Virus record (IMG/VR): IMGVR_UViG_3300009082_000016
Location: 32,001-96,000 of that record
From: a virus
Strand: one strand, 5' to 3'
Length of the DNA stretch: 64,000 nt
In this document: positions 16,090 to 63,771 of the stretch, one piece after another
How the letters are laid out: each line of letters starts with the position of its first letter
Position numbering within the stretch: position 1 is the stretch's first letter
The notes under the pieces: model-generated
What the model saw: only the letters and a program-made list of their open reading frames with translations
Database searches by the model: none
Told to the model about the DNA's origin: nothing
Translations under genes and position numbers: made by a program

Positions 16090-16119
16090 TTGTCCTCGGG
16101 CCTGACCCTGATGTATCCT
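16090..16119 (+). promoter_or_regulatory. Promoter TTGTCC-18-TATCCT, probable leaderless start at 16127
   Basis: -10 lies 7 nt before the ATG. Confidence 0.55.
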
Positions 16120-16126
16120 GAGGGCC

Positions 16127-18616: not shown

Positions 18617-19470
18617 CACTCGAACAGGTGAGGTGGGAGGCCTTCCAGAAGGAGGCCCAGTGGGCCTTGTTGGGAAGGCTCCTGGGAGGGGCGGGGAAAC
18701 TGATGGCCCGGGCAGGAAGCCAAGGGGGGCTGCTGGCCCGGATGGGCGGCACCGCGGCCAAAGCCGGCACCCGAATGGTGGAGTCCTCTCCGCTGCGGAA
18801 TCTCCTTCAGAACGCCCCACGAGTCCTGCAAGGGAAACCCTTCCTCTCCCCGCGAAACATGGCGGCCGGCGAAACCATGATCGACCCCCTTGGGCGCATG
18901 AGAACAGGCCAGGCTCTCCCGCTCTGGTTCAAACGCCGCCCCCTTCCGCAGATCGCCCCCCTTCGGCCCAGCTATGAAGGCGTGACAAGGGCGACGATCA
19001 TCAAGCCCCAGACGCCCGTGAACCCGATCGGGCCGACGGCCTACCAACCTCCCACACCGGCCCAGGTCAACCCGCTAGGCAGGACAGTCGGCAGGACGGC
19101 AGTGGGTCCCATGCCTAGCGCCCCCGGGGTAACTCAGTCCAGCATCCCCCAGGTGACGCAAGCCGGGATCCTTCCGCCCGCTCCCACGGTGAGCACGATT
19201 CCTGTGACCCCGCCGATTCCCGGGACGGCCGCGTACAGTCGGAACATGTTCAGCTCGGGCGGCGCCGCCATTCGGGCAGGAACCCTTCAACGATCGATGA
19301 ACAACGTCCTGGGCCCGACCGGAACGGCTTTTGCTCGGGCACCCAACCCCATCGATCAGACCTTCCGCAGCCTTTCCAGTTCGCCCTTGCTCTCCAAGTT
19401 CAACTCGCTCATCGAGCAGGTGGAACAGGCCACCTTCCTCGAGGCGATCATGCGTCAGAACTCCAGATAG
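18613..19470 (+). CDS. Basic Pro/Thr-rich protein with N-terminal FQKEA leader
   Basis: ATGA overlap; leader followed by amphipathic QWALLGRLLGGAGKLM. Confidence 0.6.
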   Translation: MTLEQVRWEAFQKEAQWALLGRLLGGAGKLMARAGSQGGLLARMGGTAAKAGTRMVESSPLRNLLQNAPRVLQGKPFLSPRNMAAGETMIDPLGRMRTGQALPLWFKRRPLPQIAPLRPSYEGVTRATIIKPQTPVNPIGPTAYQPPTPAQVNPLGRTVGRTAVGPMPSAPGVTQSSIPQVTQAGILPPAPTVSTIPVTPPIPGTAAYSRNMFSSGGAAIRAGTLQRSMNNVLGPTGTAFARAPNPIDQTFRSLSSSPLLSKFNSLIEQVEQATFLEAIMRQNSR

Positions 19471-19550
19471 AGCAGCGGCGGGAGGCGCCGTGATCCGGGG
19501 GGAGCAGAAGACGGCACCTCTCCGCCGCCGGGGTCAGAATACCACGAAAT

Positions 19551-20018
19551 CTAGCGGAGCCAAACCGGGGGCTTGACCGTCTCGCCGACGGTGGTGATGC
19601 TCCGAAGGGCCTGCGCCTGTTCGGGCGGCAGCACCTTCAGACGGGCAGCAAGTCGCTTCGCCGCAGTAGGCAGCGCCGGCGGAAGAACACCCGCGGCCCG
19701 AGAGAAGAAGCTGCCCATCGGCAGCGGGCCCGCGTACTTCAGGAACTCCTCGACGAAGGTGTTGAACTCGACGGCGGCTTCCTTGTGCGTGTGCTGCCCC
19801 TTCTTCCGACGTTCCGAAGCAGTGCGGGCCAAGGCCTTGGCCAACCGAGCCGCCCCTCGCCCCCGCCCGACGGACTTGAAGGCCTTCGGTGTAACATCCG
19901 TGGCAACGACATCCCAGGGGATATCGTCAAAGAGTCCAGTCAGCGGGCTGCCCCGCCGGAGACGCCCCACGCCGTGCAGGCGGCCGATTCCCTTTCCAAC
20001 GGCTCGAAGTTCACCCAT
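19551..20018 (-). CDS. Basic protein with K-x-A motifs
   Basis: Starts 2 nt after the upstream stop; HKEA, EEFLKYA. Confidence 0.6.
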   Translation of the reverse strand: MGELRAVGKGIGRLHGVGRLRRGSPLTGLFDDIPWDVVATDVTPKAFKSVGRGRGAARLAKALARTASERRKKGQHTHKEAAVEFNTFVEEFLKYAGPLPMGSFFSRAAGVLPPALPTAAKRLAARLKVLPPEQAQALRSITTVGETVKPPVWLR

Positions 20019-20020
20019 CG

Positions 20021-20725
20021 CTATTGTTCTACCTCAGGTTGGCTAGCCGCCTGCTTCACCCCACTCGCCAAATCCCACTTGTCTCCCACCCGCTTGGTGA
20101 ACTTGAACAGCGTCGGCTTTCGCTTGATCCCGTGACCGACAGCCTTCTCCTTGTTGATGAGGAGCTTGCCGTCCTGCTTGGTGACCTCGTACGGTTCCTG
20201 CTTCTCTCCCCTGAAGGTGCGCGGACCCGTACACGACTTCAGCTCACCGTGCTGCCTGCTGTGGAAATGCCACGGAACGGACCCGACGGGGAACCCCCTA
20301 GCAGCTAGCTTCAGACTGCCGCTGCGTACCTGCTGCTTGAGGTCGCCAAGGCTGATCTGGCGGATCTTACCGATCGTGATGTGGTGGTGCTTGGCACTGC
20401 GTAGGACGTCCCGCTTCGTACCGAAGTTGAGGTAGACCTTGTGCTCGTCGAACTTGGACGGGTCGTGCCAGTCCATCTTGTCGACCACGTAGGCCCGGCG
20501 CGAGTTCTTGTTGGGGCCGACGAACACGTCGAGTGGATCCTTGTCCGCTCCCATCGTTCCCGGGAACGAGCCGTAGTTGTGCGTGTATCGTTCCCGCTTG
20601 TTGATGAACAACGTCCCGATGGGCCGCTCGATGTTGATATTCAGCCCGTGAATACGGGTCTTCCACCGGGTGACGTCACCTTCCCAGGCTGTCTTGAGGA
20701 ATGCCGACTTCTCGGCTAGCCCCCG
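20021..20725 (-). CDS. Inorganic pyrophosphatase-like (InPase) domain; probably the -1 frameshift extension of the upstream gene
   Basis: HGLNINIERPIG...YGSFPGTMGADKDPLDVFVGP...FDEHKVYL; the domain begins upstream of the first available start codon (TTG 20611). Confidence 0.75.
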   Translation of the reverse strand, partial: RGLAEKSAFLKTAWEGDVTRWKTRIHGLNINIERPIGTLFINKRERYTHNYGSFPGTMGADKDPLDVFVGPNKNSRRAYVVDKMDWHDPSKFDEHKVYLNFGTKRDVLRSAKHHHITIGKIRQISLGDLKQQVRSGSLKLAARGFPVGSVPWHFHSRQHGELKSCTGPRTFRGEKQEPYEVTKQDGKLLINKEKAVGHGIKRKPTLFKFTKRVGDKWDLASGVKQAASQPEVEQ

Positions 20726-23703
20726 AAAGGGCTTCCGCCGCCCTGTTGCATCGCCATCTCCTGCATCGCCTGCTGCTCGAGCTGGCGACGGCGGCGATTG
20801 CGGGCACGCTGCGCGAGCGCGTAGCCGGTGACACCACCGGCGACGCCGCCGAGCGCGGACATCTCCGGCATCGGGGTCGCGCCGTAGAGCTTCTGCAGGA
20901 GCGGCAGGGCCGCGGCGCCGGCGAGGGCGCCCCCGCCCGCGGTCAGCATCGGGTGACGCTCGGCGAACCCCATCTGCTCCTGGGCCCGCTTGAGGAAGGC
21001 ACCGTGCTTCGCCTTCCCCCGCGCCCGCTGGTAGGACTGCGACACCGCCGACGTTCCGAGCATCCCGCCGAGACCGCCGGCGAGGCCGGACGCGGCACCC
21101 GTGAACACAGGGTGACGACCGGCGAAGGAGAGGTGCTTGCGGATCTTCTCCTTCTCCTTCTCCGTCATCCCTTCCTCGAGCGAGTGACGCAGGACCGAGC
21201 CCGCCGCTCCACCGCCGATGGGGCCTCCCGCCCAGCCGCCGAGGAATCCGGTGGCCATCGGATGCCGCTCGACCCAGCCCGCCTCCCGGGCCTGCTTCTC
21301 GCGCGTGAAGTCGGCGAACGAGCCCTGCTTGTAGTAGGACTCCGGCGACTTCTTGCCGAACAGCGCCTTCGCGCCCCAGAGACCCGCCAACGCGCCACCG
21401 CCGATCAGGCCGGCGCGAGGAAGGGCCTTCATGAGGGGCTCACCGACGCTCTTGCCCACGAGACGGGGCCGCCTGGCGATGTACCCCGGGGTCTTCTTGA
21501 TCTCCGCGTCGATCGCGGCGCGAGCCGCATCGCGGGCCTGCTGGTCCACGATTTTCGCAGGCATCCCACGAGCGTCGCGCATCGCACCCGTCGGCAGGGC
21601 CTCACGCTCCGCCCACAGGTTCTGCAGTCGCTCCAGCTCACGGGCCTCCAGTCCCCTCTGGGCCTTCCGCCCGACGTGCGCCCCCACGCCCAGGGCCGCC
21701 GCACCGGGGAGGATGCCGATCTCGCGGTCCCGGATCTCCCTCAGGGAGTTCGGCGCCGGAGTGCCGTACTGCGCGTACTTGTACTTCGCCTCCTGGAACG
21801 ACCGCTCCTGCAGGTTGCCCAGGATGGACTCGAAGTCCTCGAGTCCGGCCGTACGCGTGGTCGGGGAGGGGCCGATGCTTCCGCGGGTCGCGTCTCCGGT
21901 GCTGGGGCTGGCGAACGTGGTCGGCTGGCCCGTGACACCGGCGCTCGAACCACCACCCATCGTCATGGGGACGGAGGTGGCTCCACCGCCGGCCGCGCTG
22001 GCAACACCACCGCTGGGCGAACCGACGGCGACCTTCGTGAGCATCGCCCGCTTCTCCGCCATCTGCGGATCGAACGCCGCCATGCGCCGCATGCCGGGCG
22101 CGTACGGGTCCATGCCGCGAGAGATCGGCGACGGGTGCCCACCACCCATCCGGCTGTGACTGAGCTCGTGGCCCAGCACGCCCGAATCCCCACCGCGGGA
22201 GATCGACGCCGGGCCACCGCCGCGCATCCGGCGGTAGATCTCGCCCGCGCCGAGGCCGAGGCCGCCACCGGCCGCCGCGCCGCCCGCGATCGCCAACCCG
22301 CGGCGCTTCTTGTCCTTCATGCCCCGCGTCGCCAGCGCCGTACCGGCGCCGCCGGCCACCGCGCCGCCGAGACCGCCGATGACCCGCGGGTCGGAGAAGA
22401 ACGAACCGATGTCGCTGCTGCTGAGCGCCTGCTTCTTCATGGTCATCCTCGCCTGCTTCTGGAACGACGCCTGGACCTTCATGCCGCCACCACCGGGGAC
22501 GGCAGCCTTGGCCACTTCCGTGGGGGCCGGAGCGGCCGGAGGCGGAGCGGCAGCCACCTGCGGGGCAGCCGCAGGCCCGGCGGCCGCAGGAGCCGGGACG
22601 GGCGCAGCAGCCGGGCCCATCACCATCGACTCGTAGTTCGGGGCCCCCTCCGCGTTCAGCGCGAGCATCTGCTGCAACGCCGGCGTGCCGAGCTGCTGAC
22701 CACCCTGCTGGAGGGCCTGCGCGGCCGCCTGCGGACCGAACAGGGCCGTCATCTCCTGGAGGGCGGCCTGGGACGGCCCACCTTGAGCCGCGGCGTTCGC
22801 GGTCTCGGGCCCCATCATTGCCTGCAGGCCCGCCGCACGGCGCACGGCCTCCAGGGACTGGGTCTCGTCCGTCAGCCCGGCCGCCGGAGCTTCTCCCCTG
22901 GCCACAGGGCCGCCGAAGCCGCCCTGATCGAACCGGCTGGGCATGTCCATGGGCGAACCGCTGGCGTAGCCGCCGCCCATGCCCTGGATGGCGGCCGCCA
23001 GGCCCGGGTCCATGCCCGTCGGGGCCTGCGGCGCGTTCATCGCGCCCATCAGGCCCTCGAGCTGGCCCCGCTTCTCCCGCGGGATGCCCAGGATTTCCTC
23101 CACCACCGAACGGGCCTGCGCTTCCTTGACCGCCCGCGGGGAGAACTCCCCGAGCTTCTGCTTCCTGAGGTTCCGGGGAGCCGTCGGGTTCTGTCCGGTT
23201 CGTTCCACGTGGTGCTCCTTGAGGCCGGGAAAGCGTGCATAGACCTTCGAGCGTACCGTGGCCCGCTCCGCAGGCGTACCGTGCTGCGACACCCTGGCCA
23301 AGGCGTTGCGGGCATGCGGTGCGTCGTGGATCGGGTACTTCTCCTGCTTGGGAAGCGCGAAGTTCTTCGGCTTGATCTTCTCCCGACCGGCAGCCGTCAG
23401 GTTTGCAGCTTCCTTCTGCATGGCTCCGAGCGTACCACGGGTCAGCGCGTCCTGGGAAGCCCGCCACAGGTCGTAGTTCAGGGAGCCGGTCTTGAGCGAC
23501 TTGTACTCGCTCTTCGGCTTGTCGAACTTCGCCTTCGCCTCGCGCTTCCCCTGGGGGGTGCCGAAGCCCTTGGGCGCCTGCCCCTTGGCGTGCGCCTGCT
23601 GCGTGGCGACGGCAAAAGCGACCGACTTCGCCTTCTTCGGTGGGTACGTCTCCTTCATCGAGGGAAGGAGGTGCATAGCCCGGTCGTGAATGGCCTTCGG
23701 CAC
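20716..23703 (-). CDS. Large multi-module putative internal virion polyprotein (995 aa) with DUF6582-like domain and glycine zippers
   Basis: GTG start with SD AGGAG; FALPKQEKYPIHDAPHARNALAR motif; more than 10 K-x-A/G sites. Confidence 0.7.
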   Translation of the reverse strand: MPKAIHDRAMHLLPSMKETYPPKKAKSVAFAVATQQAHAKGQAPKGFGTPQGKREAKAKFDKPKSEYKSLKTGSLNYDLWRASQDALTRGTLGAMQKEAANLTAAGREKIKPKNFALPKQEKYPIHDAPHARNALARVSQHGTPAERATVRSKVYARFPGLKEHHVERTGQNPTAPRNLRKQKLGEFSPRAVKEAQARSVVEEILGIPREKRGQLEGLMGAMNAPQAPTGMDPGLAAAIQGMGGGYASGSPMDMPSRFDQGGFGGPVARGEAPAAGLTDETQSLEAVRRAAGLQAMMGPETANAAAQGGPSQAALQEMTALFGPQAAAQALQQGGQQLGTPALQQMLALNAEGAPNYESMVMGPAAAPVPAPAAAGPAAAPQVAAAPPPAAPAPTEVAKAAVPGGGGMKVQASFQKQARMTMKKQALSSSDIGSFFSDPRVIGGLGGAVAGGAGTALATRGMKDKKRRGLAIAGGAAAGGGLGLGAGEIYRRMRGGGPASISRGGDSGVLGHELSHSRMGGGHPSPISRGMDPYAPGMRRMAAFDPQMAEKRAMLTKVAVGSPSGGVASAAGGGATSVPMTMGGGSSAGVTGQPTTFASPSTGDATRGSIGPSPTTRTAGLEDFESILGNLQERSFQEAKYKYAQYGTPAPNSLREIRDREIGILPGAAALGVGAHVGRKAQRGLEARELERLQNLWAEREALPTGAMRDARGMPAKIVDQQARDAARAAIDAEIKKTPGYIARRPRLVGKSVGEPLMKALPRAGLIGGGALAGLWGAKALFGKKSPESYYKQGSFADFTREKQAREAGWVERHPMATGFLGGWAGGPIGGGAAGSVLRHSLEEGMTEKEKEKIRKHLSFAGRHPVFTGAASGLAGGLGGMLGTSAVSQSYQRARGKAKHGAFLKRAQEQMGFAERHPMLTAGGGALAGAAALPLLQKLYGATPMPEMSALGGVAGGVTGYALAQRARNRRRRQLEQQAMQEMAMQQGGGSPFGG

Positions 23704-44870: not shown

Positions 44871-44924
44871 GTCTGCGCGGTGGAATGGGGGCGCTTCCGA
44901 CGGAGCTCGGAGAAGGAGGAAACG

Positions 44925-45452
44925 ATGAAGAAGTGGTTGCTCGGGATCGTGGCCCTCGGGTTGCTGACCGGCTGCCCGAGGCCGTACGTCGCCGCCCAGC
45001 GGACCATCCTCAACGCCGTGGATGCGCTGCACATCGCCGACGAGGCGATCGTGGCCGCGTACCCCTCGGTGGAGGGGACGGACGAAGAGCGGGTGGCGTG
45101 GCTGACGAAGGCGGTCTGCGCCCTCCGCATCAGCCGGGACACGCTCCAGATTGGCTGGGACGTGACGTTCTACTGGGCGGAGGACGACAAGGTCTGCACC
45201 AAGGACGGGGAGGTGGTTCCACCGGAAACGGAAGGTGCCGTCTGCGTCGCCGGCGATCGATCGTGGCAGGACTGGGTGATGATCTCGGTGCCCGTCGTCC
45301 TCCACGCTGTCCAGTTGCTCAAGGACTTCGGGGTGAACATCCCGGACACCATCCTCACCATTCTGCAGGGGCTGGCGTCCGCCGGAGAGTTCGAGGCAGA
45401 ACCGTTCGACGAGGACTTCAACGCCTGCGTCGAGGCACTGGGAGAGGGGTGA
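44925..45452 (+). CDS. Lipoprotein
   Basis: MKKWLLGIVALGLLTG-C lipobox; SD AAGGAGG. Confidence 0.85.
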   Translation: MKKWLLGIVALGLLTGCPRPYVAAQRTILNAVDALHIADEAIVAAYPSVEGTDEERVAWLTKAVCALRISRDTLQIGWDVTFYWAEDDKVCTKDGEVVPPETEGAVCVAGDRSWQDWVMISVPVVLHAVQLLKDFGVNIPDTILTILQGLASAGEFEAEPFDEDFNACVEALGEG

Positions 45453-45455
45453 GCC

Positions 45456-45641
45456 ATGAAGGTCGCCGAACTGATCATCGGCTTGGTGCCGACCGTCCTG
45501 AAGGACATCCTGGAGTGGATCAACGGCCGTGACTCGGTCTACGACTACACCGAGTTCGCCAAGCGCGTCGGCGGGAAGTTCAAGTCCGAGATCCTGCTCG
45601 AGCGCGAGAAGAACCGCGTCAAGAACAAGCCGAACGGCTGA
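45456..45641 (+). CDS. Small amphipathic protein
   Basis: SD GAGGGG; follows the lipoprotein. Confidence 0.7.
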   Translation: MKVAELIIGLVPTVLKDILEWINGRDSVYDYTEFAKRVGGKFKSEILLEREKNRVKNKPNG

Positions 45642-45678
45642 CCCCCCTATTTGCGTTGGAAGACGACGTCCAAACCCG

Positions 45679-45709
45679 CCTGCTACGCTACGCCTCGTAG
45701 CGTAGCAGG
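45679..45709. terminator. Perfect 14-bp inverted repeat between convergent genes
   Basis: CCTGCTACGCTACG-CCT-CGTAGCGTAGCAGG; no U-run. Confidence 0.45.
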
Positions 45710-45751
45710 GGCCTCCAGGAAGTCCGGTCGCAGTTACTCGGTAGATGAACG

Positions 45752-45967
45752 TCAGGGGATGCAGCAGGTCAGCCGCTGGGCGACCGGGCACCGCTGGTCC
45801 AAGAACACGGGCTCACCCCACACGAGGTAGTACGGCCGGCCACTCGCGTCGGCCTTCCGGATGCCCTCGAGCTTCTCGGTGATCATGCTGGCGATGGTCT
45901 CCCCCACACGCACCGTGCCGAGGTTGGCTTCCGGTTTCCTGAGCAGATCGCTGTTCATCGGTGCCAC
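45752..45967 (-). CDS. Hypothetical protein
   Basis: SD AAGGAG. Confidence 0.5.
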   Translation of the reverse strand: MAPMNSDLLRKPEANLGTVRVGETIASMITEKLEGIRKADASGRPYYLVWGEPVFLDQRCPVAQRLTCCIP

Positions 45968-46047
45968 CAGTCTCCTTCGCCAAGTCGGCGAAGTGCCCTT
46001 CTACCAGTTCGCTCGGCAGACGGCAACACCACCACGGGCCTCGAACG

Positions 46048-46695
46048 TCACGCCGCCCTCCCGTACCGCTCGTCCAACCAGACCGCCGCCTCCTTCGAAG
46101 ACGGTTCGATGAGCGTATCGGTCCGGACGACCGGAAGGCTGTGCCGCAGCTCCTTCTCGGTGACCTCGCAGTCGAGCAGCGAGCAACCGTAGTTGAGCAG
46201 CTTCGTCGACAGGGCGTAGGGGTCGAGCAGGCGCCCCTGGTAGCGCCACTCCATCTCCAGGTCAGAGCGGTAGGCGCCGGACTCGTAGTGCGCCCGCTCC
46301 GCGGGGTTGGTGAGGTAGTCCCAGGAGAAGCTGAGCTCGCCGGTCTTGTCCGCCTGGATGAGGTGATCGATCTCGTGGACGCAGATTCGCATCTGGCCCC
46401 AAAGGCTGTAGTCCTCGTGCGGCTCGCCCGGCGTGAACGGAGCATAGATTCCACGGAACGGCATGAGCGGGACGGTCGTCGTGTAGTGCTGCAGGAACTC
46501 CTCCCGGGAGAGGATGCCCATCGCATTGAGCACGTCGGCGACGAACTTCATCTCCTTGGAGTTGTGCTTGTCGATCAGGCGCACGGTGTGCCGGGAGCAC
46601 ATGTAGTCCCAGAACTCGCGCACGTCCTCGGGCGTGGGGTTGACCGGGTAGATCAGCCGGCGGGCCATCGGATAGCGAATGAGCAGCTTCTTCAC
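46048..46695 (-). CDS. Zincin-like HExxH protein
   Basis: CVHEIDH...RAHYESGAY. Confidence 0.7.
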   Translation of the reverse strand: MKKLLIRYPMARRLIYPVNPTPEDVREFWDYMCSRHTVRLIDKHNSKEMKFVADVLNAMGILSREEFLQHYTTTVPLMPFRGIYAPFTPGEPHEDYSLWGQMRICVHEIDHLIQADKTGELSFSWDYLTNPAERAHYESGAYRSDLEMEWRYQGRLLDPYALSTKLLNYGCSLLDCEVTEKELRHSLPVVRTDTLIEPSSKEAAVWLDERYGRAA

Positions 46696-46955
46696 GGTAC
46701 ACCTTCAGGGCAGCCGGCGCCCTCGACGCACGTACAGCCGGCCGGAACACCCAGCTCCACGTCCTCGGGCATCCAGCAGCAGGTCCAGTCGATCATCTGC
46801 CCGCCCAGCTCCTCGCAGTCCAAGAACGTCCGCCACCGCTGATCGCTGCCGCAGATCTGCGCCCGGTTGTTGAAACACCGGGTCTCGGCTGGCGTGCAAT
46901 CGTCCGGCATCGGGCAACCGGACAACAGGAGCACCAGCACCAGAAAAGTCCGCAT
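46692..46955 (-). CDS. Cys-rich lipoprotein
   Basis: LLLSG-C lipobox; CTPAETRC...QIC...W...DC module. Confidence 0.8.
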   Translation of the reverse strand: MRTFLVLVLLLSGCPMPDDCTPAETRCFNNRAQICGSDQRWRTFLDCEELGGQMIDWTCCWMPEDVELGVPAGCTCVEGAGCPEGVP

Positions 46956-46958
46956 GGC

Positions 46959-47405
46959 TCACCTCCCCTTGCGCTGCGCCTGCTTCACGACCTCCCGCGC
47001 GACCGACCAGGTCAGCGGGTCGGCCAGGGCCCCCCGGAAGTCGAACAGCGCCTCCGCCGCTTCCTTCTCCCGAACTTCGTTCCGCCCCTTCTCGATGAGC
47101 GCGGACTCCTCCGGGGCCAGGCGCTCCAGGATCTCCAGGAACTCGCCGACGTGGACCCGCTCTTCCTTGGCGATGTCCCGGAAGATGTCGGCGACCGTCT
47201 CGTTGTCGGTCGCGGCCGCCACGGCGTCGTAGAAGTGAGCCGCTTCCTCCTCGGCAGCGATCGCCTGCCGGGTGGAGCTGATCAGCTCTTCCGTCGAGAG
47301 CTTGTGGTCCGGCTGCAACCCGGGGAACGGGGTGATGAACTCGGCGGCCGTCTTCTCCGTCGTCTCGACGACCGACCTCTGCAACTCGCCCCACAGCTTG
47401 CCCAT
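46959..47405 (-). CDS. Ferritin-like (rubrerythrin/encapsulated-ferritin-type) protein with N- and C-terminal extensions
   Basis: EFITPF.G...KLS.EEL, IAAEEEAAHFY, DIAKEERVHVGEF. Confidence 0.85.
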   Translation of the reverse strand: MGKLWGELQRSVVETTEKTAAEFITPFPGLQPDHKLSTEELISSTRQAIAAEEEAAHFYDAVAAATDNETVADIFRDIAKEERVHVGEFLEILERLAPEESALIEKGRNEVREKEAAEALFDFRGALADPLTWSVAREVVKQAQRKGR

Positions 47406-47413
47406 GGTGCCTC

Positions 47414-50400
47414 CTAGCCGTTCCGAATCCGGTAGGCCAGCAACTCCTGCTGGTACGCCTGGATCAGAACGCGCCTGCGGCCGCGCACGTCCAACCGCGC
47501 CCGTGCCGCCGTATCCGTCTCGTTGATCCCCAACAGCTTCGCCGTGTCTGCCGGCGCCAGACCGAACAGGTCGGAATACGGCCCGAAGGAGTGGGAGTGG
47601 AATCCCATCACGCCCTTCACGATCGTCCCGTCGCCCTTCAGCTCCAGGTCCTTCGAGCCGAACATGTCGAACAGCGTGGCAATCGGGCGCCAGGTGTACT
47701 CGTCGGCGAACAGGGCCGCGCTGTAACCCTCGCTGCGGATCTTGGCGTAGGTGTGGGACAGGAAATCAACCGAGCCTTGGACCGTCGCGCCGTGCATGAT
47801 GCTCCCGATCACCTCGGGCGACGCCTCGCTCTCCTCGTCGGGATTCGCTTCGGACACGGCCGGGTAGCCCTGCTGCAGCGCCGCGGCGTCAGGCAGGGCG
47901 CCGTCCGACATCACGGAAATCGGGTCGGTGATCGCACCGACGCCCAGGAGCGGCATGTACACCCCGCCACCGACGCGCCCGTTGAGCCAGATGGCAGGAA
48001 ACCATGGCGGGCGAACGATGTCCTCGACCGCGAAGTCGACCGTCGACGCGCCATCCGACACGTCCTCGATGAACGCGTAGGCGTTGAGCGTCACCTTCAC
48101 GTCCGGGCTCCCGACGTAGCTCACCACGTCCGCGCCGAACTCTCGGGCGGGGTGCTCGGTGCCGATCAGGTCGCTGCGGATGGTGGCGGCCGGCAGCCGC
48201 TGCCCGTTCGGGTAGACACCGTAGAGAGGCAGAGCACGCGGTCGGGCGTTGCGAGGCTGCAGGGAAGACCTGCGCCGGGACAACGCGGACAGACGCTCGT
48301 TGAGTGCCGCGAGGGAAGCCCGCGCTTCAGGCGTATTGGCCGCGAGAGCCACCCTCAGCTGCTGGGTGACCTCTGTCGTCTGCTGACCGATGGACCGAAT
48401 CTCCCGGTCGACATCAACCGAATGCACCGTGGCCGGCGTGTACTGGTCGGTGACGTCCCGGACCTCCTTGATCGGACCGCCCCAAGGTCCCTGGGCACCC
48501 ACCACGGGCGGGTTGTCGGCGAACGCCGCGACCACCCACTGCTTGTCCGTGATCTGCTCGCCACGGACCGTGCGCTCGACCGTCTGGGGACCCGTGAACA
48601 GGCTGGCGATCACGCCACCCAGCGCACCAACCGCGCCGGCGGTCGCCGCCGTCATCTCATCGCGGGTCTCCTGGGTGACGACCACCGGCTCCTGACCCGG
48701 TCCGTGGACGTAGGACTCGTTCGGCTGCCGCTCCGGCGGGGTCCGGTCCATCCTTTCCCCCACCTCGTCGTGGACGAGGTCGAATCCGGCAACCGCGCCG
48801 CGGACCGCATTTCCCAGCGGGTCCCAGGTTGCGACCTGCTGCTTGACGTAGCGGTACAACTGCCGGCGACGACGCGCCTCCTGGACGTCTTGCCCGAAGA
48901 ACTCCACCGATTCCCGATGGTCGCGGGCGTAGGACAGCGTCATCGTCGTGCCGCACTGCCCCGACGCATCCATCGTGTGCGCCACGGTCTCGACGATCCC
49001 CAGGAAATGGACGCCGGTACGACCCTGCAGCAGGTCCAGGATCTCGCCCTTGAACGGCGGCGGCTCGCCCGTCGTCTCCTGGGTGAGCTGGTTGAGCGCC
49101 CGCTCGCCGTACTGGAGGATGAGCTCGTTGTTGCGTGTCTCGATGTACGACGGGGGGGCGCTGAGCACCAGCCCCGGGTAGCCCGGCACCAGATAGGGGT
49201 TGAACTTGCACTGCAGCTGCAACGTCCGGGCAGCGAAGCGGGTCTTGAAGAACAGGTAGTTGGTCACCCGTTGGAAGTAGTCGAGCGCCTGCCCGTTCAC
49301 CGTCTCGTTCTCCCGGCCGGCGCGGAGGATGTTCTTCCCGATGGTCATCTCCCGGTCGGACATCGTCTGGAAGAAGGGGACGATACCCGTGTAGATCTCG
49401 TGGGCCATCAGGTCGGACGAGATGTGCGCGTCGCCCTGGGCGAAGCTGCCACCCGAACGGCGGATGATGGGGCGGTCCCGCAGCAGCCCCGAGGCCATCG
49501 GCGTGAAGTACCAGTTGTCAAAAAAGGGCACCGAGCCCAGGAACGCCGAGTAGCCCTTGATCATCAGCCGCGTCGGTTCGGCGAAGAAGTTGCGGCTGAA
49601 CGACACGCTCGAGTACTGGTCAGGGAACACGACGTTGCAGCGCGGCGGCGGGCAGAACCAGATGTCGGGACGGAACAGCTGCGTGTAGAGGAAAGCCGGC
49701 TCACCGACATCGACATCGGGCCTGCGTGCCGACGACCCGTACGCCTCCCCCAGAATGAGGTCGCAGAGCTTGACGATCTCCTTGAGGTAGTCGTAGGGCT
49801 TCGAAGCGGTGGGGTCGGAACTTCCGAGGATGCTCCGCCCGGAACTTCCCTTGTAGGCCAGCAGCGCCAGGTTGAGCGTGACGTGCCCTTGACGCTCGCC
49901 CCGGTCCCGGAGCGCCTGCCGCAAGGACGTACCCAGCTGTTCCGCCCGGCGGAAGATGGCTCGCGTCTCCTCAAAGTACAGGGCGTTGATCCGCACGGTG
50001 TAGCCCTGCTCCGACAACGGGCTCCCCGCCCCCACTCGGGCGATCAGATCCTCCGTGGCCTTCTTCAGCACCCGGATGGGGCCGCGAACATTGATGGCCG
50101 CCACCTCCGGTTCCGCACCTTCGGACTCCGCGCACCAACCCATCATCTTCGCGTAGTCCCCGGAGGGCGGCCGATACGACGGCGTCGACAACGGGTACAC
50201 CGAGTAGAAGGTGTACTGCATCAGGGCCTGCATGAGCGTGCGGAAGTTGAACTGCCTGGGCAGTCCGCGGATGCTGGTCCGCCACAGCGAGCCGAAACCC
50301 TGGCTGGCCATCAACCGGACGGGTGTCGAGTCCCCGGGCGGGATGCCCATCTGCTGCAGGAGGCGCAGCCGCAGCTCGGCCATCGCGGCAAACGGGTTGG

Positions 50401-51097
50401 GCGACGTGATGACCTGTGCCCCCCCGAGCCTGCGATGGTAGACGCCGAACACCTCCTCCATCAGGTGCATGATGCCGGCCAGGTACGACGTGTTCACCTG
50501 ACCAGTCGACGGGTCCCGGGTGACCAGCTGCGGGAACGAGCTCGGCGGCTTGGTCAGCTTGTCGTACAGGGCGCCTGTCTCACCGCCCAGGAGGTCGTAG
50601 AACGCGCCCGTCGCGTGCCCTTCAAACGTGGGCATGCGCGTCGGCGCGAACAGCCCCCCTGACCGATCGTGAATCACCGAGTCCCAGTAGTTCGACAGGT
50701 CCTGGCACTGCAGAACGACGCCGCGGTTGGACTCGTTCTTGGTGTAGGACAACCCCATGACCTCGCCGACGAACAGGAGTCGGTAGCGGGTGTACTCGGC
50801 CGGGACATCGGGGACAACAACGTCCTCCTCCCCCTCGATCACCGGCGTTTCGTACGAGGTGTTGACCGCCTCGATCTGCGAGCTGCCGGGGACGCCCACC
50901 ACGTAGTCGGGGTTGGCCGTGTCGCAGTAGAAGACGTGGATCAGCGTCCGGGGCAGGATCATGAACGCCAGGGGGCTCGGGACGATCTGGATGGACGCAG
51001 AAGCCGGGCTGTCCCGCTGCATGGAGACAGCGATGCTGACGATGGGAAGCTCGACGCCCTCGGCGAAGAACTTGAGATGGAGCTTGTCCGCCCTCAC
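47414..51097 (-). CDS. Baseplate hub-like tail protein (1227 aa)
   Basis: LKFFAEGVELP, LLFVGEV, LQCQDLSNYW, PPRCNV.FP, FNPYLVPGYP; downstream of the tape measure. Confidence 0.65.
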   Translation of the reverse strand: MRADKLHLKFFAEGVELPIVSIAVSMQRDSPASASIQIVPSPLAFMILPRTLIHVFYCDTANPDYVVGVPGSSQIEAVNTSYETPVIEGEEDVVVPDVPAEYTRYRLLFVGEVMGLSYTKNESNRGVVLQCQDLSNYWDSVIHDRSGGLFAPTRMPTFEGHATGAFYDLLGGETGALYDKLTKPPSSFPQLVTRDPSTGQVNTSYLAGIMHLMEEVFGVYHRRLGGAQVITSPNPFAAMAELRLRLLQQMGIPPGDSTPVRLMASQGFGSLWRTSIRGLPRQFNFRTLMQALMQYTFYSVYPLSTPSYRPPSGDYAKMMGWCAESEGAEPEVAAINVRGPIRVLKKATEDLIARVGAGSPLSEQGYTVRINALYFEETRAIFRRAEQLGTSLRQALRDRGERQGHVTLNLALLAYKGSSGRSILGSSDPTASKPYDYLKEIVKLCDLILGEAYGSSARRPDVDVGEPAFLYTQLFRPDIWFCPPPRCNVVFPDQYSSVSFSRNFFAEPTRLMIKGYSAFLGSVPFFDNWYFTPMASGLLRDRPIIRRSGGSFAQGDAHISSDLMAHEIYTGIVPFFQTMSDREMTIGKNILRAGRENETVNGQALDYFQRVTNYLFFKTRFAARTLQLQCKFNPYLVPGYPGLVLSAPPSYIETRNNELILQYGERALNQLTQETTGEPPPFKGEILDLLQGRTGVHFLGIVETVAHTMDASGQCGTTMTLSYARDHRESVEFFGQDVQEARRRRQLYRYVKQQVATWDPLGNAVRGAVAGFDLVHDEVGERMDRTPPERQPNESYVHGPGQEPVVVTQETRDEMTAATAGAVGALGGVIASLFTGPQTVERTVRGEQITDKQWVVAAFADNPPVVGAQGPWGGPIKEVRDVTDQYTPATVHSVDVDREIRSIGQQTTEVTQQLRVALAANTPEARASLAALNERLSALSRRRSSLQPRNARPRALPLYGVYPNGQRLPAATIRSDLIGTEHPAREFGADVVSYVGSPDVKVTLNAYAFIEDVSDGASTVDFAVEDIVRPPWFPAIWLNGRVGGGVYMPLLGVGAITDPISVMSDGALPDAAALQQGYPAVSEANPDEESEASPEVIGSIMHGATVQGSVDFLSHTYAKIRSEGYSAALFADEYTWRPIATLFDMFGSKDLELKGDGTIVKGVMGFHSHSFGPYSDLFGLAPADTAKLLGINETDTAARARLDVRGRRRVLIQAYQQELLAYRIRNG

Positions 51098-52743: not shown

Positions 52744-53004
52744 CTAGAACACCAGGCTCGTGCGGGCCAGGATGTCACGCAGCTTGCGCGGCGTGTCCGG
52801 GCGCTCGTAGCCGCGGCCCGTGTACAGCGAGAACAGGAACGCCTTGCCCATGTTGACGCTCACGTCGTCCACCGAGTACAGGTCGCGCAGGATGAGCGAG
52901 TGCATCCGCCGGTCGGACCCGAGGTAGCGCACGCGCTGCTCGATACGGCCCGTGAGCACGTCCGCCGGCGGGGCACCGGCCGGGATCAATCCGAAGTCGG
53001 CCAT
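52744..53004 (-). CDS. Small tail-associated protein
   Basis: TGATG overlap with the tape measure. Confidence 0.65.
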   Translation of the reverse strand: MADFGLIPAGAPPADVLTGRIEQRVRYLGSDRRMHSLILRDLYSVDDVSVNMGKAFLFSLYTGRGYERPDTPRKLRDILARTSLVF

Positions 53005-56000
53005 CAGCCGGCACCTCCTGAAGCCGCAGCGCCGCCCCCGCCCCCGCTGCGGCGGAGCACGGCCATGCCCAGCCCGCCGCTGCCGCCACCCGACGCGGTC
53101 CCCTGGGCGCCACCGGTCTCCGCAGATGAACCGGGCGTGGTGGGCGTTTTTCCACCAGTACCCCCGGTGGGCACTGCGGCAGCGGCCGCACCGGGAACGG
53201 TGACTTTCGTGAGGTCAATCTCCCAGGTGATCGCGCCAATGGCGTTGGCAATGTCCGTGGGCAACTGCTGCTGCGCCTGGGTCGCCTTGCTCTCCTGCTG
53301 CCGGACCCCCGAGGCGAAGCGGCCGTAGATGTCGCCGACCTGCCGCCCGAGAGCCCCCTGATCGAGCCCCTTGCCGGTCTCGAGGTACTTCCGGACATCG
53401 ACCCCGGATCCACCAAGTCCCGCTTCCTGGGCTGCCGTGGTGAGAGCTTCGACGCTGGCCCCCTGCAGACCGCTGACATCCCGGACCCTGCCGATGACGT
53501 CGAGCAGGGCCTTCCGACGCGCATCCGTACTCCCACGGCCGGCACGCTGGAGGCGGCGCAGGCTGTTACCCGCCCCCTCGACCGCGGCGAGGGCGTCGGT
53601 ATAGCCAACCGCCGACAGGGCGCCGAGCCGGCGCTGGTGTTCCTTCGGGTCGGAGCCGGCATAGACGTTGGCAACGAGCTCGCCGACACGGCCGGGATCG
53701 ATCGTATCCCCCGCCAGGCCGGAAAGGGTGCCGACCAGATTCCCGAGAGCGGGATCGCTTTTCGCGAGCTCCTTGAGCTTGTCGACCTGCTCCGGGCTCG
53801 CACCGAACATCGTCTTGGTGGCCTTCGAGACGTCCTGCCAACCGATGACAGCATTCCCCCGGCCGATCATCAGCGTGGCGTTGAGCGCCTCGCGGACACC
53901 GTCATCCCCACCACGGTTCAAAGCCTCCTGGATGGGACCCTGTTCCATGATCTCGTCGACCTGGGCCCGGCTGAGCCCCTTCCCCTCAAGGGCCGCCAGG
54001 AAGATGCCGCGAGAATCCGCCCCAGGTTGCACAGCACTCTTTCCCGCCGAGAGCAGATCGTCGGCACTCTTGCCGAACAAGGCACCACCCTTCTGCTCCG
54101 TGAGCTCCATCATCTTCCCGGAGAGGTCGGACGTCGCACGCAGGAAGCCGCGGATCTTCGACATCTCCCACGAGACGACGTCCTTGCCCTTGCCCTCCGT
54201 CCGGAACATGCCGCGGAGCGCCTGGTCGTAGGCGTCACCGCCCTGGCCCATGAGCGGCCCGCCCTTCAGAAGCTCCTGGTAGGAGAACGCGCCGATGCCG
54301 AGCTCACCAGGCTTGAGCCAACCCTTCTCGATCGCCTCGCGCTCTTCCGGCTTGAGCACCTTCCCCATCGCGAGCTCGGCGGCCTGCTGGTAGACCTGAC
54401 CCGAAATCTGGTTCCGCGTGACCTTCGTCAGATCGTAGCCGCGCTCCGCCATGGTCGTCTGGAGGTTCTGAACGATGCCCTGCATCTCCGCCTGGGTGAC
54501 TTCCACCTTCCGACCCAGGATGCTGAACTCCTGCGTTCCCGTCCACAGCTCGGAAATGCCCTTGGCTGCGGAGTAACCTTCGCTCTCCACGTTGTACGTC
54601 CCTGAACGAATGTCCGTGGCAATCTGCTCGGCGCGTCTCTGCATGAACGAGGCGTGCCGCTCCGCGCTCGCCGTCGTCTCGTCGACAGCGCCCGCGATCG
54701 GCCGCAGCCACTGCGACATGGCCCCGCCCCGCATCGCGTTCGCCTGCCGCAGCATGGCATCGTGCCGTTCGGACGAAACGCCGGTGGCGTGGGCCTGCGC
54801 TTCCAGCTCCTTGGCCTTGCGGAAGGTTTCCGTGACCTGGGAGGGGATCTCGCCGATGAGCTGACCACCCCAGTTCGAGGTCAGGGACGACAGCCCCGTG
54901 TACACGGCTTTGGCCTGCTGTTCGAGACGATGCTGCTCGTGCCACGGCAACTTCTCGAGCTGCTTCTGGGCTTCCGTGATAGCGGCGTTGACATCACCCG
55001 TCGCCCCGACGATGTACGAACCGGCATTGAGCATCCGGGCCTGGGTCTGAAGCGTCGCAATCTGGTTGGGGTCCGTGATTCCAGGAGCCACCGGCCCGGA
55101 GAAAGTGGAAAGACCCGGCCCGGCCCCCGCGCCCGCAGCCTGGTAGCGGCTCATGATGCCCTGGATCTGCTTCGACGAGCCGGGCCGGAACATCATGTCC
55201 TGCAGCGGGGCCGCAAGCCACGAGTCCGCCGCATCCACGGCGGCGCCCATCCGCTCCATCATCAGCTGCTCGAACGACTTCTGGACCTGCTCGCCCTTCT
55301 GCTCGAGCTTCTGGACCCAGCCCTGCACCCGCTCCTGGAACCCGCGCATGAACTGCGGGCCGCCGGCCTGCATGTTGCGGGCAAAGTTGGAGGACGCCTG
55401 CCGGGCGCGAATGTTGTTCGCCTGCTCTTCGATGCGGATGGTGTCGATGTTCTGGATCATCTCCGCATACGGCGCGACCTGCTCGGCGTTCATGCCCGTG
55501 AGCCGCCCCAACGTGATGCGCCCACGGCTGCTGGTCACGTCGTCGATGCCCCGCTCCTGGAGGACGTTGCGGTACATCAACATCTCGGCGTACGGCTCGG
55601 CCTGCATCATGTTGGAGGCGAGCTTGCCGCGGTTCGCAACCCAGTTGGCCTGACCGTACTGCCCCGCCCGGCGGGAGGCCTGACGCTGCAGCTCACCCAT
55701 CGAGAGCGTGCCGCCACGCAGCCCGGCCATCATCTCCTGATCGACGCCGCCCGTCGTCGGGTCAAGCATCGCCGCCGTGAGCCAGGCGCCGCGGCTGCTG
55801 TGCCGCATGCGCTGCGACATCTGCCCCAGGAACTGCGAGCCCATCGCCTGGATGCCGCCCTGCTCAGGGGACATGCCCGTCGCCTGGAACACGTCCTCGG
55901 GGTTGAGGATGCCGAGGTTGTAGGCCGTGCCCATCGTGCGCTGCATCATCAGGGACGCGCCCATCGCCTGGGGGGCGCGGATGCCGGCCTGCATCATGCC

Positions 56001-56666
56001 GGGCAGCGCCTGCTGCATGCCCTGCATCACCGCCTGCGGGCTCATCCCCGTGCCGTAGGCGACGCCCTGGACCTGCGACAGCGCGTTCGCGCCGGCCTGC
56101 CCGAAGAGGCCCATGCCGCGCACCTGCTGCATGAGCGCCATCGACTCCTGCAGCGACGTGCCGAGCGTCTGCGTGACCGTCTTCACCGCCTGGAGCAGCT
56201 CGGTGAACTTCTGCTTGAAGTCGCTGACCGTGCGCGTCGCCTGGAACGCGCCCATCTGCGTGCCGGCGCCGATGATCTGCGACAGCTCGCCCATCGTCGC
56301 CTGCGGCATGACCTGCTGCTGCTTGACCTGCTGGAAGATGGCCTCGCGCTCCTGGAAGCCGAAGCCCTGGCCCATCGGGCCGCCGCCGCCCGGGAAGGCG
56401 ATCTGCCCGATCGCCCCCATCACGTTCGCCCGGTTCATCGCGCCCTGGGTGATGGCACCGAGAATCGGGGTCTGCGGGGAGATGAGCGAGCCGAGGACGG
56501 CGGGGCCCATCTGCTGCGCTGCCTGCAACCCGGCGGGCGTCTGCGGGCCGTACATCAGGCCCTGCATCAACGTCGGCCAGATCGGCGGGGGTGCCATGTT
56601 CTGCTGCCCCATCATGGCCAGCTGCATGATCTGGGCGGAGCTCATCACGGTCGGTGGCGTTCCCAC
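53004..56666 (-). CDS. Tape-measure-like protein (about 1220 aa)
   Basis: Long helical A/G/Q/M-rich ORF upstream of hub genes; GTG start 7 nt after TGCTAGGAT. Confidence 0.75.
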   Translation of the reverse strand: MGTPPTVMSSAQIMQLAMMGQQNMAPPPIWPTLMQGLMYGPQTPAGLQAAQQMGPAVLGSLISPQTPILGAITQGAMNRANVMGAIGQIAFPGGGGPMGQGFGFQEREAIFQQVKQQQVMPQATMGELSQIIGAGTQMGAFQATRTVSDFKQKFTELLQAVKTVTQTLGTSLQESMALMQQVRGMGLFGQAGANALSQVQGVAYGTGMSPQAVMQGMQQALPGMMQAGIRAPQAMGASLMMQRTMGTAYNLGILNPEDVFQATGMSPEQGGIQAMGSQFLGQMSQRMRHSSRGAWLTAAMLDPTTGGVDQEMMAGLRGGTLSMGELQRQASRRAGQYGQANWVANRGKLASNMMQAEPYAEMLMYRNVLQERGIDDVTSSRGRITLGRLTGMNAEQVAPYAEMIQNIDTIRIEEQANNIRARQASSNFARNMQAGGPQFMRGFQERVQGWVQKLEQKGEQVQKSFEQLMMERMGAAVDAADSWLAAPLQDMMFRPGSSKQIQGIMSRYQAAGAGAGPGLSTFSGPVAPGITDPNQIATLQTQARMLNAGSYIVGATGDVNAAITEAQKQLEKLPWHEQHRLEQQAKAVYTGLSSLTSNWGGQLIGEIPSQVTETFRKAKELEAQAHATGVSSERHDAMLRQANAMRGGAMSQWLRPIAGAVDETTASAERHASFMQRRAEQIATDIRSGTYNVESEGYSAAKGISELWTGTQEFSILGRKVEVTQAEMQGIVQNLQTTMAERGYDLTKVTRNQISGQVYQQAAELAMGKVLKPEEREAIEKGWLKPGELGIGAFSYQELLKGGPLMGQGGDAYDQALRGMFRTEGKGKDVVSWEMSKIRGFLRATSDLSGKMMELTEQKGGALFGKSADDLLSAGKSAVQPGADSRGIFLAALEGKGLSRAQVDEIMEQGPIQEALNRGGDDGVREALNATLMIGRGNAVIGWQDVSKATKTMFGASPEQVDKLKELAKSDPALGNLVGTLSGLAGDTIDPGRVGELVANVYAGSDPKEHQRRLGALSAVGYTDALAAVEGAGNSLRRLQRAGRGSTDARRKALLDVIGRVRDVSGLQGASVEALTTAAQEAGLGGSGVDVRKYLETGKGLDQGALGRQVGDIYGRFASGVRQQESKATQAQQQLPTDIANAIGAITWEIDLTKVTVPGAAAAAVPTGGTGGKTPTTPGSSAETGGAQGTASGGGSGGLGMAVLRRSGGGGGAAASGGAG

Positions 56667-56673
56667 GTCGGCT

Positions 56674-56682
56674 ATCCTAGCA
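56674..56682 (-). promoter_or_regulatory. Extended -10 TGCTAGGAT, leaderless start at 56666
   Basis: In-frame GTG exactly 7 nt downstream. Confidence 0.55.
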
Positions 56683-56829
56683 CCGAACGGCGGCAAAGAA
56701 GAAGGGGCCCTCACCAGGGTCCTCCCTTCCCACGAACCGGGCACGCTCGACCGCGAGTCCCCGGGCGACTATGTCGCCGGCTTCCGCTTCACGGAACGCC
56801 TCAGAACGACGGGGACGGTCGGTAGACGA

Positions 56830-60797: not shown

Positions 60798-61163
60798 CTA
60801 CTCCCGAATCCACTGCCGGGCGATCTCGCAGAGGGCGATGAACACGGCGTCCTTGTCCCGCTCCAGCTCGCCGAGGTCGGCGTACGGCACGAGGTCCGGG
60901 TGGACCTTCTTCTCCCGGTCGTACTTCTCGCCGTACACCCAGCCCATTGCGAAGTACGACTGCATCCAGCTGCCGTGCAGCTCTTCGGGCGACTTCGACC
61001 GCTGCTCGCCGCACTGCCGCTCGATGACCTTGATGAACTGGTCCTTGAACGGCTGCTCCCGGTCCCGCCAAGCCGACGGGATGACGGGAGCGTGCGCTGC
61101 GATTGCCGCCAGCCGGGCCGCCTCGTAGACGAAGATCGCCCGCTCGACCATCACGTCGCCCAT
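60798..61163 (-). CDS. RyR-domain protein
   Basis: HGSWM...GWVYG...KKVHPDLVPYADL...DKD. Confidence 0.85.
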   Translation of the reverse strand: MGDVMVERAIFVYEAARLAAIAAHAPVIPSAWRDREQPFKDQFIKVIERQCGEQRSKSPEELHGSWMQSYFAMGWVYGEKYDREKKVHPDLVPYADLGELERDKDAVFIALCEIARQWIRE

Positions 61164-63150: not shown

Positions 63151-63771
63151 TCAGTTCCCCTTGTTCCAGCCGGAGGCGGTCGAGCCGGAGCGCATGCTCC
63201 GCACCGCGCAGGACGAACTGGCGATGCCCTTCGAGAGGCTGACACCGTCATGGGCGAAGCTCAACACCTGCGCGTTCGGATCGATCGCGAGGTTCTGGAG
63301 CGTCATCTGCGCCTCCATGCCGGCGGCGAGGTAGAGGAACTTCCAGGAGTAGACCTGCTCCTGGTTGGCGATCATCCCCTTCAGCTGATCGAGCTGGTAC
63401 TCCCTCGACGCGTTCTCGAAGCCGTCGGTGAGGATGACGAGGATGACCTGCTCCGGCCGCTCGGGCTCGGGCATAGCGGCGAGCTTCACGCCCAGCTCGG
63501 TGATCGTCTTGCCGACGGCGTCGTACAGCGCCGTGGTCCCCCGCGGGAGGTACGTCTTGTCGTCGAGGGGCTTCACGTCCTTGACCGGGACGTCGCGGAA
63601 GATGACCTGGTACTCGTGGTCGAACTGGACGAGCGTCATCGCCGCCTCGCCCGGCGCCTTCTTCTGGTCGTCGACGAACGCGTTGAAGCCCCCGATGGCC
63701 TCCTTGACCATGGCCTCCATCGAGCCGGAGCGATCGAGCACGAACACGATGTGGCACGAGTTCTTCTTCAC
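63151..63771 (-). CDS. vWA-domain protein
   Basis: MIDAS motif DRSGSM, GTTALYDA, LTDGFEN. Confidence 0.92.
   Translation of the reverse strand: MKKNSCHIVFVLDRSGSMEAMVKEAIGGFNAFVDDQKKAPGEAAMTLVQFDHEYQVIFRDVPVKDVKPLDDKTYLPRGTTALYDAVGKTITELGVKLAAMPEPERPEQVILVILTDGFENASREYQLDQLKGMIANQEQVYSWKFLYLAAGMEAQMTLQNLAIDPNAQVLSFAHDGVSLSKGIASSSCAVRSMRSGSTASGWNKGN

Follow-up and report, generated by a model that had tools for sequence, protein, structure and literature searches.

A phage-encoded ferritin-like protein of the encapsulated-ferritin lineage carries K-x-A-bounded extensions and may be processed and carried in the virion

The stretch of DNA analysed here (64,000 nucleotides, "the window") is bases 32001–96000 of a 172,723 bp virus record from IMG/VR, an uncultured phage with direct terminal repeats and a G+C content of 66%. 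Its open reading frame (ORF) list contains a ferritin-like gene at window positions 46959..47405 on the minus strand, whose 148 amino acid (aa) product consists of a half-ferritin of the encapsulated-ferritin (EncFtn) family with an N-terminal leader and a C-terminal tail. Comparison of this protein with its homologues and with the other proteins of the phage leads us to give a probability of roughly 0.45 to the reading that it is a processed, probably virion-carried EncFtn-type ferroxidase, and that its K-x-A-containing leader, and probably its K114-E-A116 site, are processing and addressing signals shared with the head proteins. The leader (MGKLWGELQRSVVETTEKTA; residues 1–20, 47346..47405, minus strand) forms a helix at residues 3–16 followed by K18-T-A20, and is a candidate propeptide or targeting tag with a candidate cut after A20. 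The core (residues 21–116, 47058..47345, minus strand) contains the AEFITPFPG segment, a two-helix hairpin with E52, Y59, E82 and H85, and the start of a third helix, and it finishes at K114-E-A116 (47058..47066, minus strand), a candidate C-terminal boundary site. The tail (residues 117–148, 46962..47057, minus strand) is made of amphipathic helices and has K141-Q-A143 near its end. An earlier sequence-only reading had quoted these features as TEKTA followed by AEFITPFPG (K18-T-A20), GRNEVREKEA (K114-E-A116) and VKQA (K141-Q-A143), and had named EEEAAHFY (E52...Y59) and EERVH (E82, H85) as ferroxidase-type residues; every one of these strings is present in the translation.

The same reading held the domain to be a ferritin of the encapsulin-cargo type, and on this profile, Foldseek and NCBIfam matches agree. 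The best NCBIfam model is NF058679 (EncB_fam, the EncB family of encapsulin ferritin-like cargo; 2.9e-22, 78.9 bits, cut-off 90), TIGR04535 matches at 6.5e-14 (51.9 bits, cut-off 125), and Pfam finds Rubrerythrin at 5.8e-9 over half a domain and EncFtn-like (PF22277) at 0.0025, the latter being sub-threshold (18 bits versus a cut-off of 27); a cellular homologue (P0156, below) exceeds the NF058679 cut-off with 114 bits. A profile built from an alignment of 20 homologues matches the P. furiosus virus-like particle/encapsulin PfV, to which a ferritin domain is fused (2E0Z, 2.2e-23), the EncFtn domain on its own (5N5E, 6.3e-23) and M. xanthus EncC (7S8T, 7.5e-20). The AlphaFold model of the 148-aa protein, with a predicted local distance difference test (pLDDT) value of 89.7, has helix 3–16, a lower-confidence loop at 17–37, a hairpin of helices 38–65 and 69–96, and helices 98–127 and 130–147. 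Foldseek places 5N5E, 7S8T, 7S5K/7S5C, 5N5F and 5DA5 in its top ranks, the best being 5N5E (template modelling (TM) score 0.83, root mean square deviation 2.2) and 7S8T (TM 0.82), at 37–39% identity. E52, Y59, E82 and H85 are invariant in both the 20-sequence alignment and a larger one of 77 sequences, and their spacing (+7, +30, +33) agrees with that of the ferroxidase-centre ligands of R. rubrum EncFtn. Because of these profile, NCBIfam and Foldseek matches and the invariant ligands, sequence and model together identify the protein as a divergent but genuine member of the encapsulated-ferritin (EncFtn/EncB-EncC) lineage.

Positions 46959–47405 are a real gene with a strong ribosome-binding site. 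AGGAGG (47406..47416, minus strand, as read in the sequence) precedes the ATG and overlaps the TAG stop of the 1227-aa gene upstream, the gap being 8 nt, an arrangement of translational coupling, and the codon-position GC pattern of the gene (GC1 > GC2 << GC3) is the pattern of the phage's real genes. No alternative start codon is found in the ORF sequence near residue 21, and the 20-aa leader is therefore translated as part of the product.

The limits of the domain were compared across the 1037 homologues that phmmer finds among 1.8 billion representatives. The conserved part is query residues 21/22–114, and in most matches residue 21/22 of the query is aligned with residue 2/3 of the match; 96 of the 148 anchored homologues start MAQF or MPEF exactly at the core and thus have no leader, so that free-standing members of the family do begin at about AEFITPFPG, as had been claimed. 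Thirty-seven homologues have at least ten upstream residues, and in 18 of them a K-x-[AGS] motif (positions P3, P2 and P1) is located such that P1 lies exactly three residues before an invariant Phe, whereas at each of 24 other offsets the motif is found in 0–3 of the 37. In the 18 junction motifs P3 is K in every case, P1 is A in 16 and G in two, and P2 is T, E, K, Q or L, while what precedes the motif has no similarity from one family to the next (for example MLKEVLE-, MNTDLFFTGFAGESI-, or whole GNAT domains in proteins of 510–941 aa). The extensions thus end exactly at the motif, the position of K-x-A being kept while the rest of each leader is unrelated. That the junction lysine might be the translated remnant of a Shine-Dalgarno sequence was considered and rejected, since P3 corresponds to nucleotides −6 to −4, which is not the Shine-Dalgarno position, and P1 would need a change from ATG to GCN.

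At the other end of the domain, nine of the 16 AQF-subfamily members have K-x-[AGS] 5–12 residues past a G-x-x-E anchor, as against 2.6 ± 1.4 in shuffled sequences (500 shuffles gave a maximum of seven, and none gave nine); the corresponding count in the mostly untagged PxF subfamily is 12 of 69 versus 9.6 ± 2.7, so this enrichment is specific to AQF members. Both boundary sites are retained by the orthologues from two related phages, as KTG/KTG in P0004 (53% identity) and as KQA/KEA in P0002 (62%). A W-x-x-L leader helix is common to the ferritin protein and its syntenic orthologue P0004, and the leaders otherwise diverge; the third site, VKQA, has a similar V-K-Q-A in P0008 and a K-N-A-Q in P0002 and is not kept in P0004. 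By this comparison across homologues, the K-x-A marks that flank the domain are not a product of chance.

In a tree of the family, tagged proteins group within a single broad region that also contains untagged AQF forms, and those untagged AQF forms that were checked are on phage-like contigs; the AQF subfamily is broad and mainly phage-borne. P0156, encoded on a cellular contig of 1.05 Mb, starts at the core and has neither leader nor K-x-A; it is surrounded by oxidative-stress genes (Rrf2, hybrid-cluster protein, flavodiiron, rubrerythrin and ferritin), with no encapsulin nearby. Alignment thus finds the extensions absent from cellular and free-standing homologues. A recently captured host enzyme is too simple a picture, because the proteins with tags fall within this broad subfamily, carried for the most part by phages.

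The motif is also common in the phage's own head proteins, whose cluster occupies genome positions 1–26153 and 165000–172723, as the sequence-only reading had supposed. K-x-A occurs 268 times in the 181 called proteins versus 214 ± 13 in within-protein shuffles and is the most over-represented X-x-A triplet, and its observed/expected ratio is 1.54 in the head-cluster proteins and 1.01 in the tail operon upstream of the ferritin gene. A 675-aa head-cluster protein (genome 8227–10254, minus strand, outside the window) has 13 K-x-A where 3.1 are expected, mostly in the context hydrophobic-x-K-[T/E/S/D/N]-A followed by S, A, Q, D or G, a pattern suggestive of a polyprotein or scaffold that is processed at many sites; the acidic scaffold-like proteins encoded next to the capsid gene (genome 170431–172413) have five and eight. 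The major capsid protein (374 aa; genome 168812–169936, minus strand, outside the window; third-position GC 0.99) was recognized through the ESM Atlas (score 0.99, TM ~0.8 to phage capsid clusters). Its homologues number 837, several of them on contigs of 160–200 kb, and it therefore marks a large clade of uncultured phages. In its N-terminal arm, ...DDPTTKTKTA/ELIGG resembles the end of the ferritin leader, ...ETTEKTA/AE, and K24 and A26 do not vary across 40 homologues, the most distant at 47% identity, although the P2 residue between them does. Such a pattern in head proteins is what a maturation-protease motif would look like; we infer such a motif and claim no more, because no protease was found and the capsid arm is conserved throughout (below). 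Another head-cluster protein, of 225 aa (genome 12108–12785, minus strand, outside the window), has a DUF192/COG1430 domain at residues 120–221 (1.8e-28), and its gene adjoins a giant RNA polymerase gene.

The EncFtn-like domain is encoded on 70 IMG/VR viral contigs, some of which have it within longer proteins. A viral protein of 1582 aa (L070:823-5568, plus strand) comprises, by Pfam and in one frame, a portal with Hint/LAGLIDADG inteins inside it, DUF7218, the EncFtn-like domain and MuF; two other contigs (L067 and L068) carry proteins similar to it, and a further one (L054) encodes NUDIX, DUF6496 and EncFtn-like domains in that order. Fusions of GNAT to EncFtn have KKxA junctions; one such fusion is encoded among unannotated genes in a phage-like region, a short way upstream of a gene for a 1191-aa protein. 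Portal and MuF both count among the components inside the phage head. Because the domain is fused to them, these architectures support a head-internal location for it in at least some phages, without proving one for the phage studied here. In a protein of 403 aa (P0021) the EncFtn-like domain (residues 2–97) is instead fused to sigma-70 region 4 (residues 131–184, 2.2e-10). Proteins of 340–345 aa with an N-terminal EncFtn domain (P0007, P0114 and L016) were considered as PfV-like encapsulin fusions and set aside, since Pfam finds no Linocin_M18 domain in them.

These observations suggest the following course of events. The gene product would be a 148-aa precursor in which an N-terminal tag of 20 aa is followed by the half-ferritin core of 96 aa and a helical tail of 32 aa, and its K-x-A motifs at residues 18–20 and 114–116 are most likely recognition or cleavage sites of a phage maturation protease; the same enzyme would act on the scaffold and head-cluster proteins that are rich in K-x-A and would cut the capsid protein after K24-T-A26. 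The leader would act like a T4 capsid-targeting sequence, bringing the ferritin into the prohead and then being removed, which would leave a free mini-ferritin in the particle. Two core chains would pair head-to-head so that E52, E82 and H85 of both, with Y59 near them, form a di-iron ferroxidase centre, as in the solved EncFtn decamers, and the mini-ferritin could then carry out Fe(II) oxidation close to the packaged DNA or enter the next host along with it. Cleavage, protease, head loading and physiological role are all things that we infer. The wider proposition, that a large group of tailed phages, most of them uncultured, has taken up the encapsulin cargo ferritin as a module inside the head, either K-x-A-tagged or within portal, MuF, GNAT or NUDIX polyproteins, and that a maturation protease not yet recognised releases it, we put forward as a doubtful though possible extension. 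As for the suggestion that the capsid itself acts like an iron-storing encapsulin, the analysis lends it no support. No encapsulin (Linocin_M18-type) shell gene was found among the scanned neighbours, the whole genome not having been scanned with an encapsulin model, and the sole HK97-fold protein identified is the phage capsid protein. A prediction of the capsid-ferritin complex scored 0.00 and gave no verdict, speaking neither for nor against binding.

How does the protein compare with systems already described? With the EncFtn and EncB-EncC cargo of Family 1 encapsulins (PfV 2E0Z/5N5E; EncC 7S8T and EncB 7S5C; R. rubrum 5DA5) it shares the half-ferritin fold at TM 0.82–0.83 on the target; it has the E, Y and E-x-x-H ligands of the cargo families (PF22277, NF058679 and TIGR04535) at the same spacing, and the same N-terminal x-x-F-x-N-P-F segment as M. 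xanthus EncC. Family 1 encapsulin shells are HK97-fold, as is the capsid protein of the phage. Unlike encapsulin cargo, it comes from a tailed phage, has no encapsulin gene near its own, lacks a G-S-L peptide and scores below the curated cut-offs, and unlike cellular EncFtn members it has an N-terminal leader and K-x-A boundaries. The shell-less N. europaea protein NE0167 (3K6C), which appears among the profile and Foldseek matches, is likewise a small protein of EncFtn-like fold that has neither an encapsulin partner nor a targeting peptide, but proteins of that type are far more distant in sequence than EncC or PfV and have neither leader nor K-x-A boundaries.

The closest parallel for the proposed addressing is found in the capsid-targeting sequences of T4 internal proteins (IPI-III and Alt) and the propeptides that the prohead protease cuts from head proteins of the giant phages phiKZ and SPN3US (PMC5694885, PMC7411985, PMC10052503), which likewise consist of a short N-terminal tag with a three-residue motif fixed at P3 and P1. 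As in those systems, the motif of this phage recurs in scaffold or internal head proteins and near the N-terminus of the capsid protein, and the putative cargo is an enzyme unrelated to assembly; the motif itself differs, being K-x-A rather than the (L/I)-x-E or (A/S/G)-x-E of T4 and the giant phages. A further departure from the T4 system is that no gp21-type protease is detectable and that the ferritin gene lies outside the head module. Fusions of GNAT, NUDIX, MuF and portal domains are a defining trait of the polyvalent proteins of phages and conjugative elements, which Iyer et al. 2017 (PMC5512222) describe as packaged and processed into units, and relatives of the EncFtn-like domain share this multi-domain setting of portal, MuF, GNAT and NUDIX; the words "ferritin" and "diiron" occur zero times in that paper. 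In contrast to polyvalent proteins, the phage protein is a single module with short tags and no peptidase domain of its own. One paper (PMC13669383) considers that cargo-like proteins encoded by viruses might co-assemble in procapsids and that cargo and scaffold might be interchanged between HK97 capsids and encapsulins. A published description of a phage EncFtn or of a K-x-A protease site was not found in the literature searched.

A minus-strand operon extending from ~63.8 kb to ~45.7 kb has 24 called genes, of which the ferritin gene is the 21st. No promoter- or terminator-like sites are present between it and its neighbours, and terminator-like sites are found past the operon at ~44.8 and ~44.5 kb. 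A 1246-aa protein (53004–56744, minus strand), which is rich in Gln, Met, Gly and Ala, mostly helical, Gly-rich at its C-terminus and without a family match, is probably the tape-measure protein heading a tail-tip module, and between its gene and the ferritin gene lie genes for proteins of 86, 413, 115 and 1227 aa. The last of these (47414..51097, minus strand), immediately upstream, is tail hub/Tal-like. Its first ~140 residues model as a tail-tube-like hub domain (VIA Z 9.3 to the HFTV1 tail and 8.6 to the phi812 baseplate, with further matches to the pyocin R2 hub, VgrG, AFP/PVC spike complexes and the MuSo2 43-kDa protein), and the ESM Atlas lead for the protein is GpP/gp44-like; when it was modelled over residues 1–450 the pLDDT was 48, and residues 1–140 alone are usable. 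Downstream are genes for an 87-aa Cys-rich lipoprotein (46692..46955, minus strand; LLSGC lipobox, phrog_14364 8e-11) and a conserved 215-aa protein (46048..46695, minus strand; phrog_13834 3.8e-35), and a gene for a 190-aa lipoprotein (44880–45452, plus strand; LPAM_1 match 0.0077) lies on the opposite strand, 1.5 kb past the operon's last genes. Superinfection exclusion is known to be mediated by lipoproteins whose genes adjoin receptor-binding genes (T5 Llp). PHROGs and Pfam searches of ~45 neighbouring and head-cluster proteins were almost all blank, and the module assignments therefore rest on one Atlas result each and one weak fold model. Among the small genes upstream of the tape-measure-like gene is one for a 121-aa protein with a RyR domain (60798–61163, minus strand; PF02026 2.7e-10, phrog_5154); near the start of a 206-aa protein (63151–63771, minus strand; phrog_7371 2e-55), the sequence ...HIVFVLDRSGSM resembles a von Willebrand A (metal-ion-dependent adhesion site, MIDAS) motif.

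The ferritin gene is kept in three related phage lineages. The order of the genes for the tape-measure-like 1246-aa, 86-aa, 413-aa, 115-aa, 1227-aa and ferritin proteins is kept in the related phage represented by contigs L007–L009; in another (L004–L006) the ferritin gene comes after the lipoprotein and 215-aa genes, that is, it has moved within the accessory block. The gene for the 87-aa lipoprotein is beside the ferritin gene in L007–L009 and L005/L006, and copies of the 215-aa protein that are 56–71% identical are encoded beside it in L004–L008. The ferritin gene is, then, a stable but locally mobile member of an accessory block that ends the tail-tip operon.

DNA nearly identical to window positions 45500–49000 is present in freshwater-sediment (2017) and soil/wetland (2024) metagenomes from several studies. 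One soil contig of 11,257 nt spans the whole of this segment with eight differences, none of which is in the ferritin gene. Contigs from a wetland metatranscriptome equal positions 46586–47279 at 100%, covering the lipoprotein gene and most of the ferritin gene, although carry-over of DNA is possible; stretches without cover by RNA contigs (for example 47280–47405) are uninformative. Among 50,697 cultured-phage records there was no match, either by tblastn of the protein or by blastn of 8 kb.

Several observations weigh against packaging and processing of the protein. K114-E-A116 is within predicted helix 98–127 and K141-Q-A143 within the last helix, at pLDDT values of at least 88, which is unusual for protease sites, and the tail AEALFDFRGALADPLTWSVAREVVKQAQRKGR, as read in the sequence, lacks a C-terminal encapsulin targeting peptide of the G-S-L type. 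The whole N-terminal arm of the capsid protein is conserved, and its invariant K24 and A26 are thus no specific proof. Models for the prohead proteases S78 (PF04586) and S77 (PF03420), ClpP (PF00574) and S49 (PF01343) found no match in the genome at E ≤ 10, and Pfam and PHROGs searches of 20-odd head-cluster proteins gave nothing protease-like; the phage is very divergent, and its capsid and candidate portal proteins are likewise invisible to these libraries. Most copies of the domain on viral contigs are free-standing and untagged. The gene stands where the tail-tip operon ends on its 3' side, with small lipoprotein genes around it, away from the head module and 23 kb from the cargo cluster (14205–23703; the sequence-only reading had this distance right), and the end of a tail-tip operon is a typical site for non-structural accessory genes. 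In the relative just described, moreover, the gene has shifted within that block.

This position is the main argument for regarding the protein as a non-packaged late accessory ("moron"-type) ferroxidase, shell-less and free in the infected cell, which would limit Fe(II) or peroxide damage to replicating or packaged DNA or perturb the iron balance of the host; the leader and tail would then modulate oligomerisation or stability, and K-x-A would be a linker, a docking feature or the site of a non-capsid protease. The location after the hub/Tal-like gene, with the 87-aa lipoprotein gene adjacent and the 190-aa lipoprotein gene on the opposite strand, its shuffling among small genes in a relative, the predominance of untagged free-standing viral copies, the setting of the cellular homologue among rubrerythrin, ferritin and flavodiiron genes without an encapsulin, and the failure to find a targeting peptide or a protease all fit this explanation, which we consider possible but on the whole unlikely. 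It leaves unexplained why K-x-[AGS] sits at the exact junction in 18 of 37 otherwise unrelated extensions, why the motif is enriched in head-cluster and scaffold-like proteins, and why the domain is embedded in portal-MuF, GNAT and NUDIX polyproteins. Translational coupling to the 1227-aa gene, the tail-tube-like hub fold of that protein's N-terminus and the gene order kept from the tape-measure-like gene to the ferritin gene in L007–L009 could instead mean that the ferritin is made in step with the hub/Tal protein and associates with the tail tip, as an iron supply or store for a metal-loaded spike, an assembly factor or an accessory component, and iron-loaded spike tips are known in P2 and phi92. 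We judge this improbable, given that the ferritin gene is apart from the hub gene context in L004–L006, that the tail-operon proteins have no K-x-A enrichment or leaders, that the domain is elsewhere fused to head proteins (portal and MuF) and not to tail proteins, and that no His-rich or spike-like partner was identified. It might finally be argued that K-x-A bracketing arises by chance in a protein containing Ala and Lys, the extensions being meaningless drift; within the single protein, three K-x-A among eight lysines versus 1.2 expected is not significant, and the ~17% of the phage's proteins with K-x-A in their first 40 residues are, by our estimate, not clearly above compositional expectation. 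This explanation is scarcely credible, being contradicted by the concentration of the motif at one offset, by a C-terminal count that 500 shuffles did not reach, and by retention of the motif in orthologues at 53–62% identity though their leaders diverge.

Encapsulins and HK97-type phage capsids are believed to have a common origin, and to our knowledge no encapsulin-type enzyme cargo has so far been shown inside a phage head. The ferritin gene described here and its relatives provide a concrete test case for the idea raised in PMC13669383, with predicted cleavage points at A20/A21 and A116/A117. Under the wider proposition, phage proheads would carry an active ferroxidase, a living example of the interchange of cargo and scaffold between HK97 capsids and encapsulins that was proposed there as a possibility. 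If the protein is processed and packaged as we propose, it would show how phages address foreign enzymes to the head, reveal a new maturation-protease specificity, K-x-A, and point to a role of iron chemistry in virion stability or early infection. If it is not packaged, the sequence comparisons would still indicate a widespread and apparently undescribed auxiliary ferroxidase of phages.

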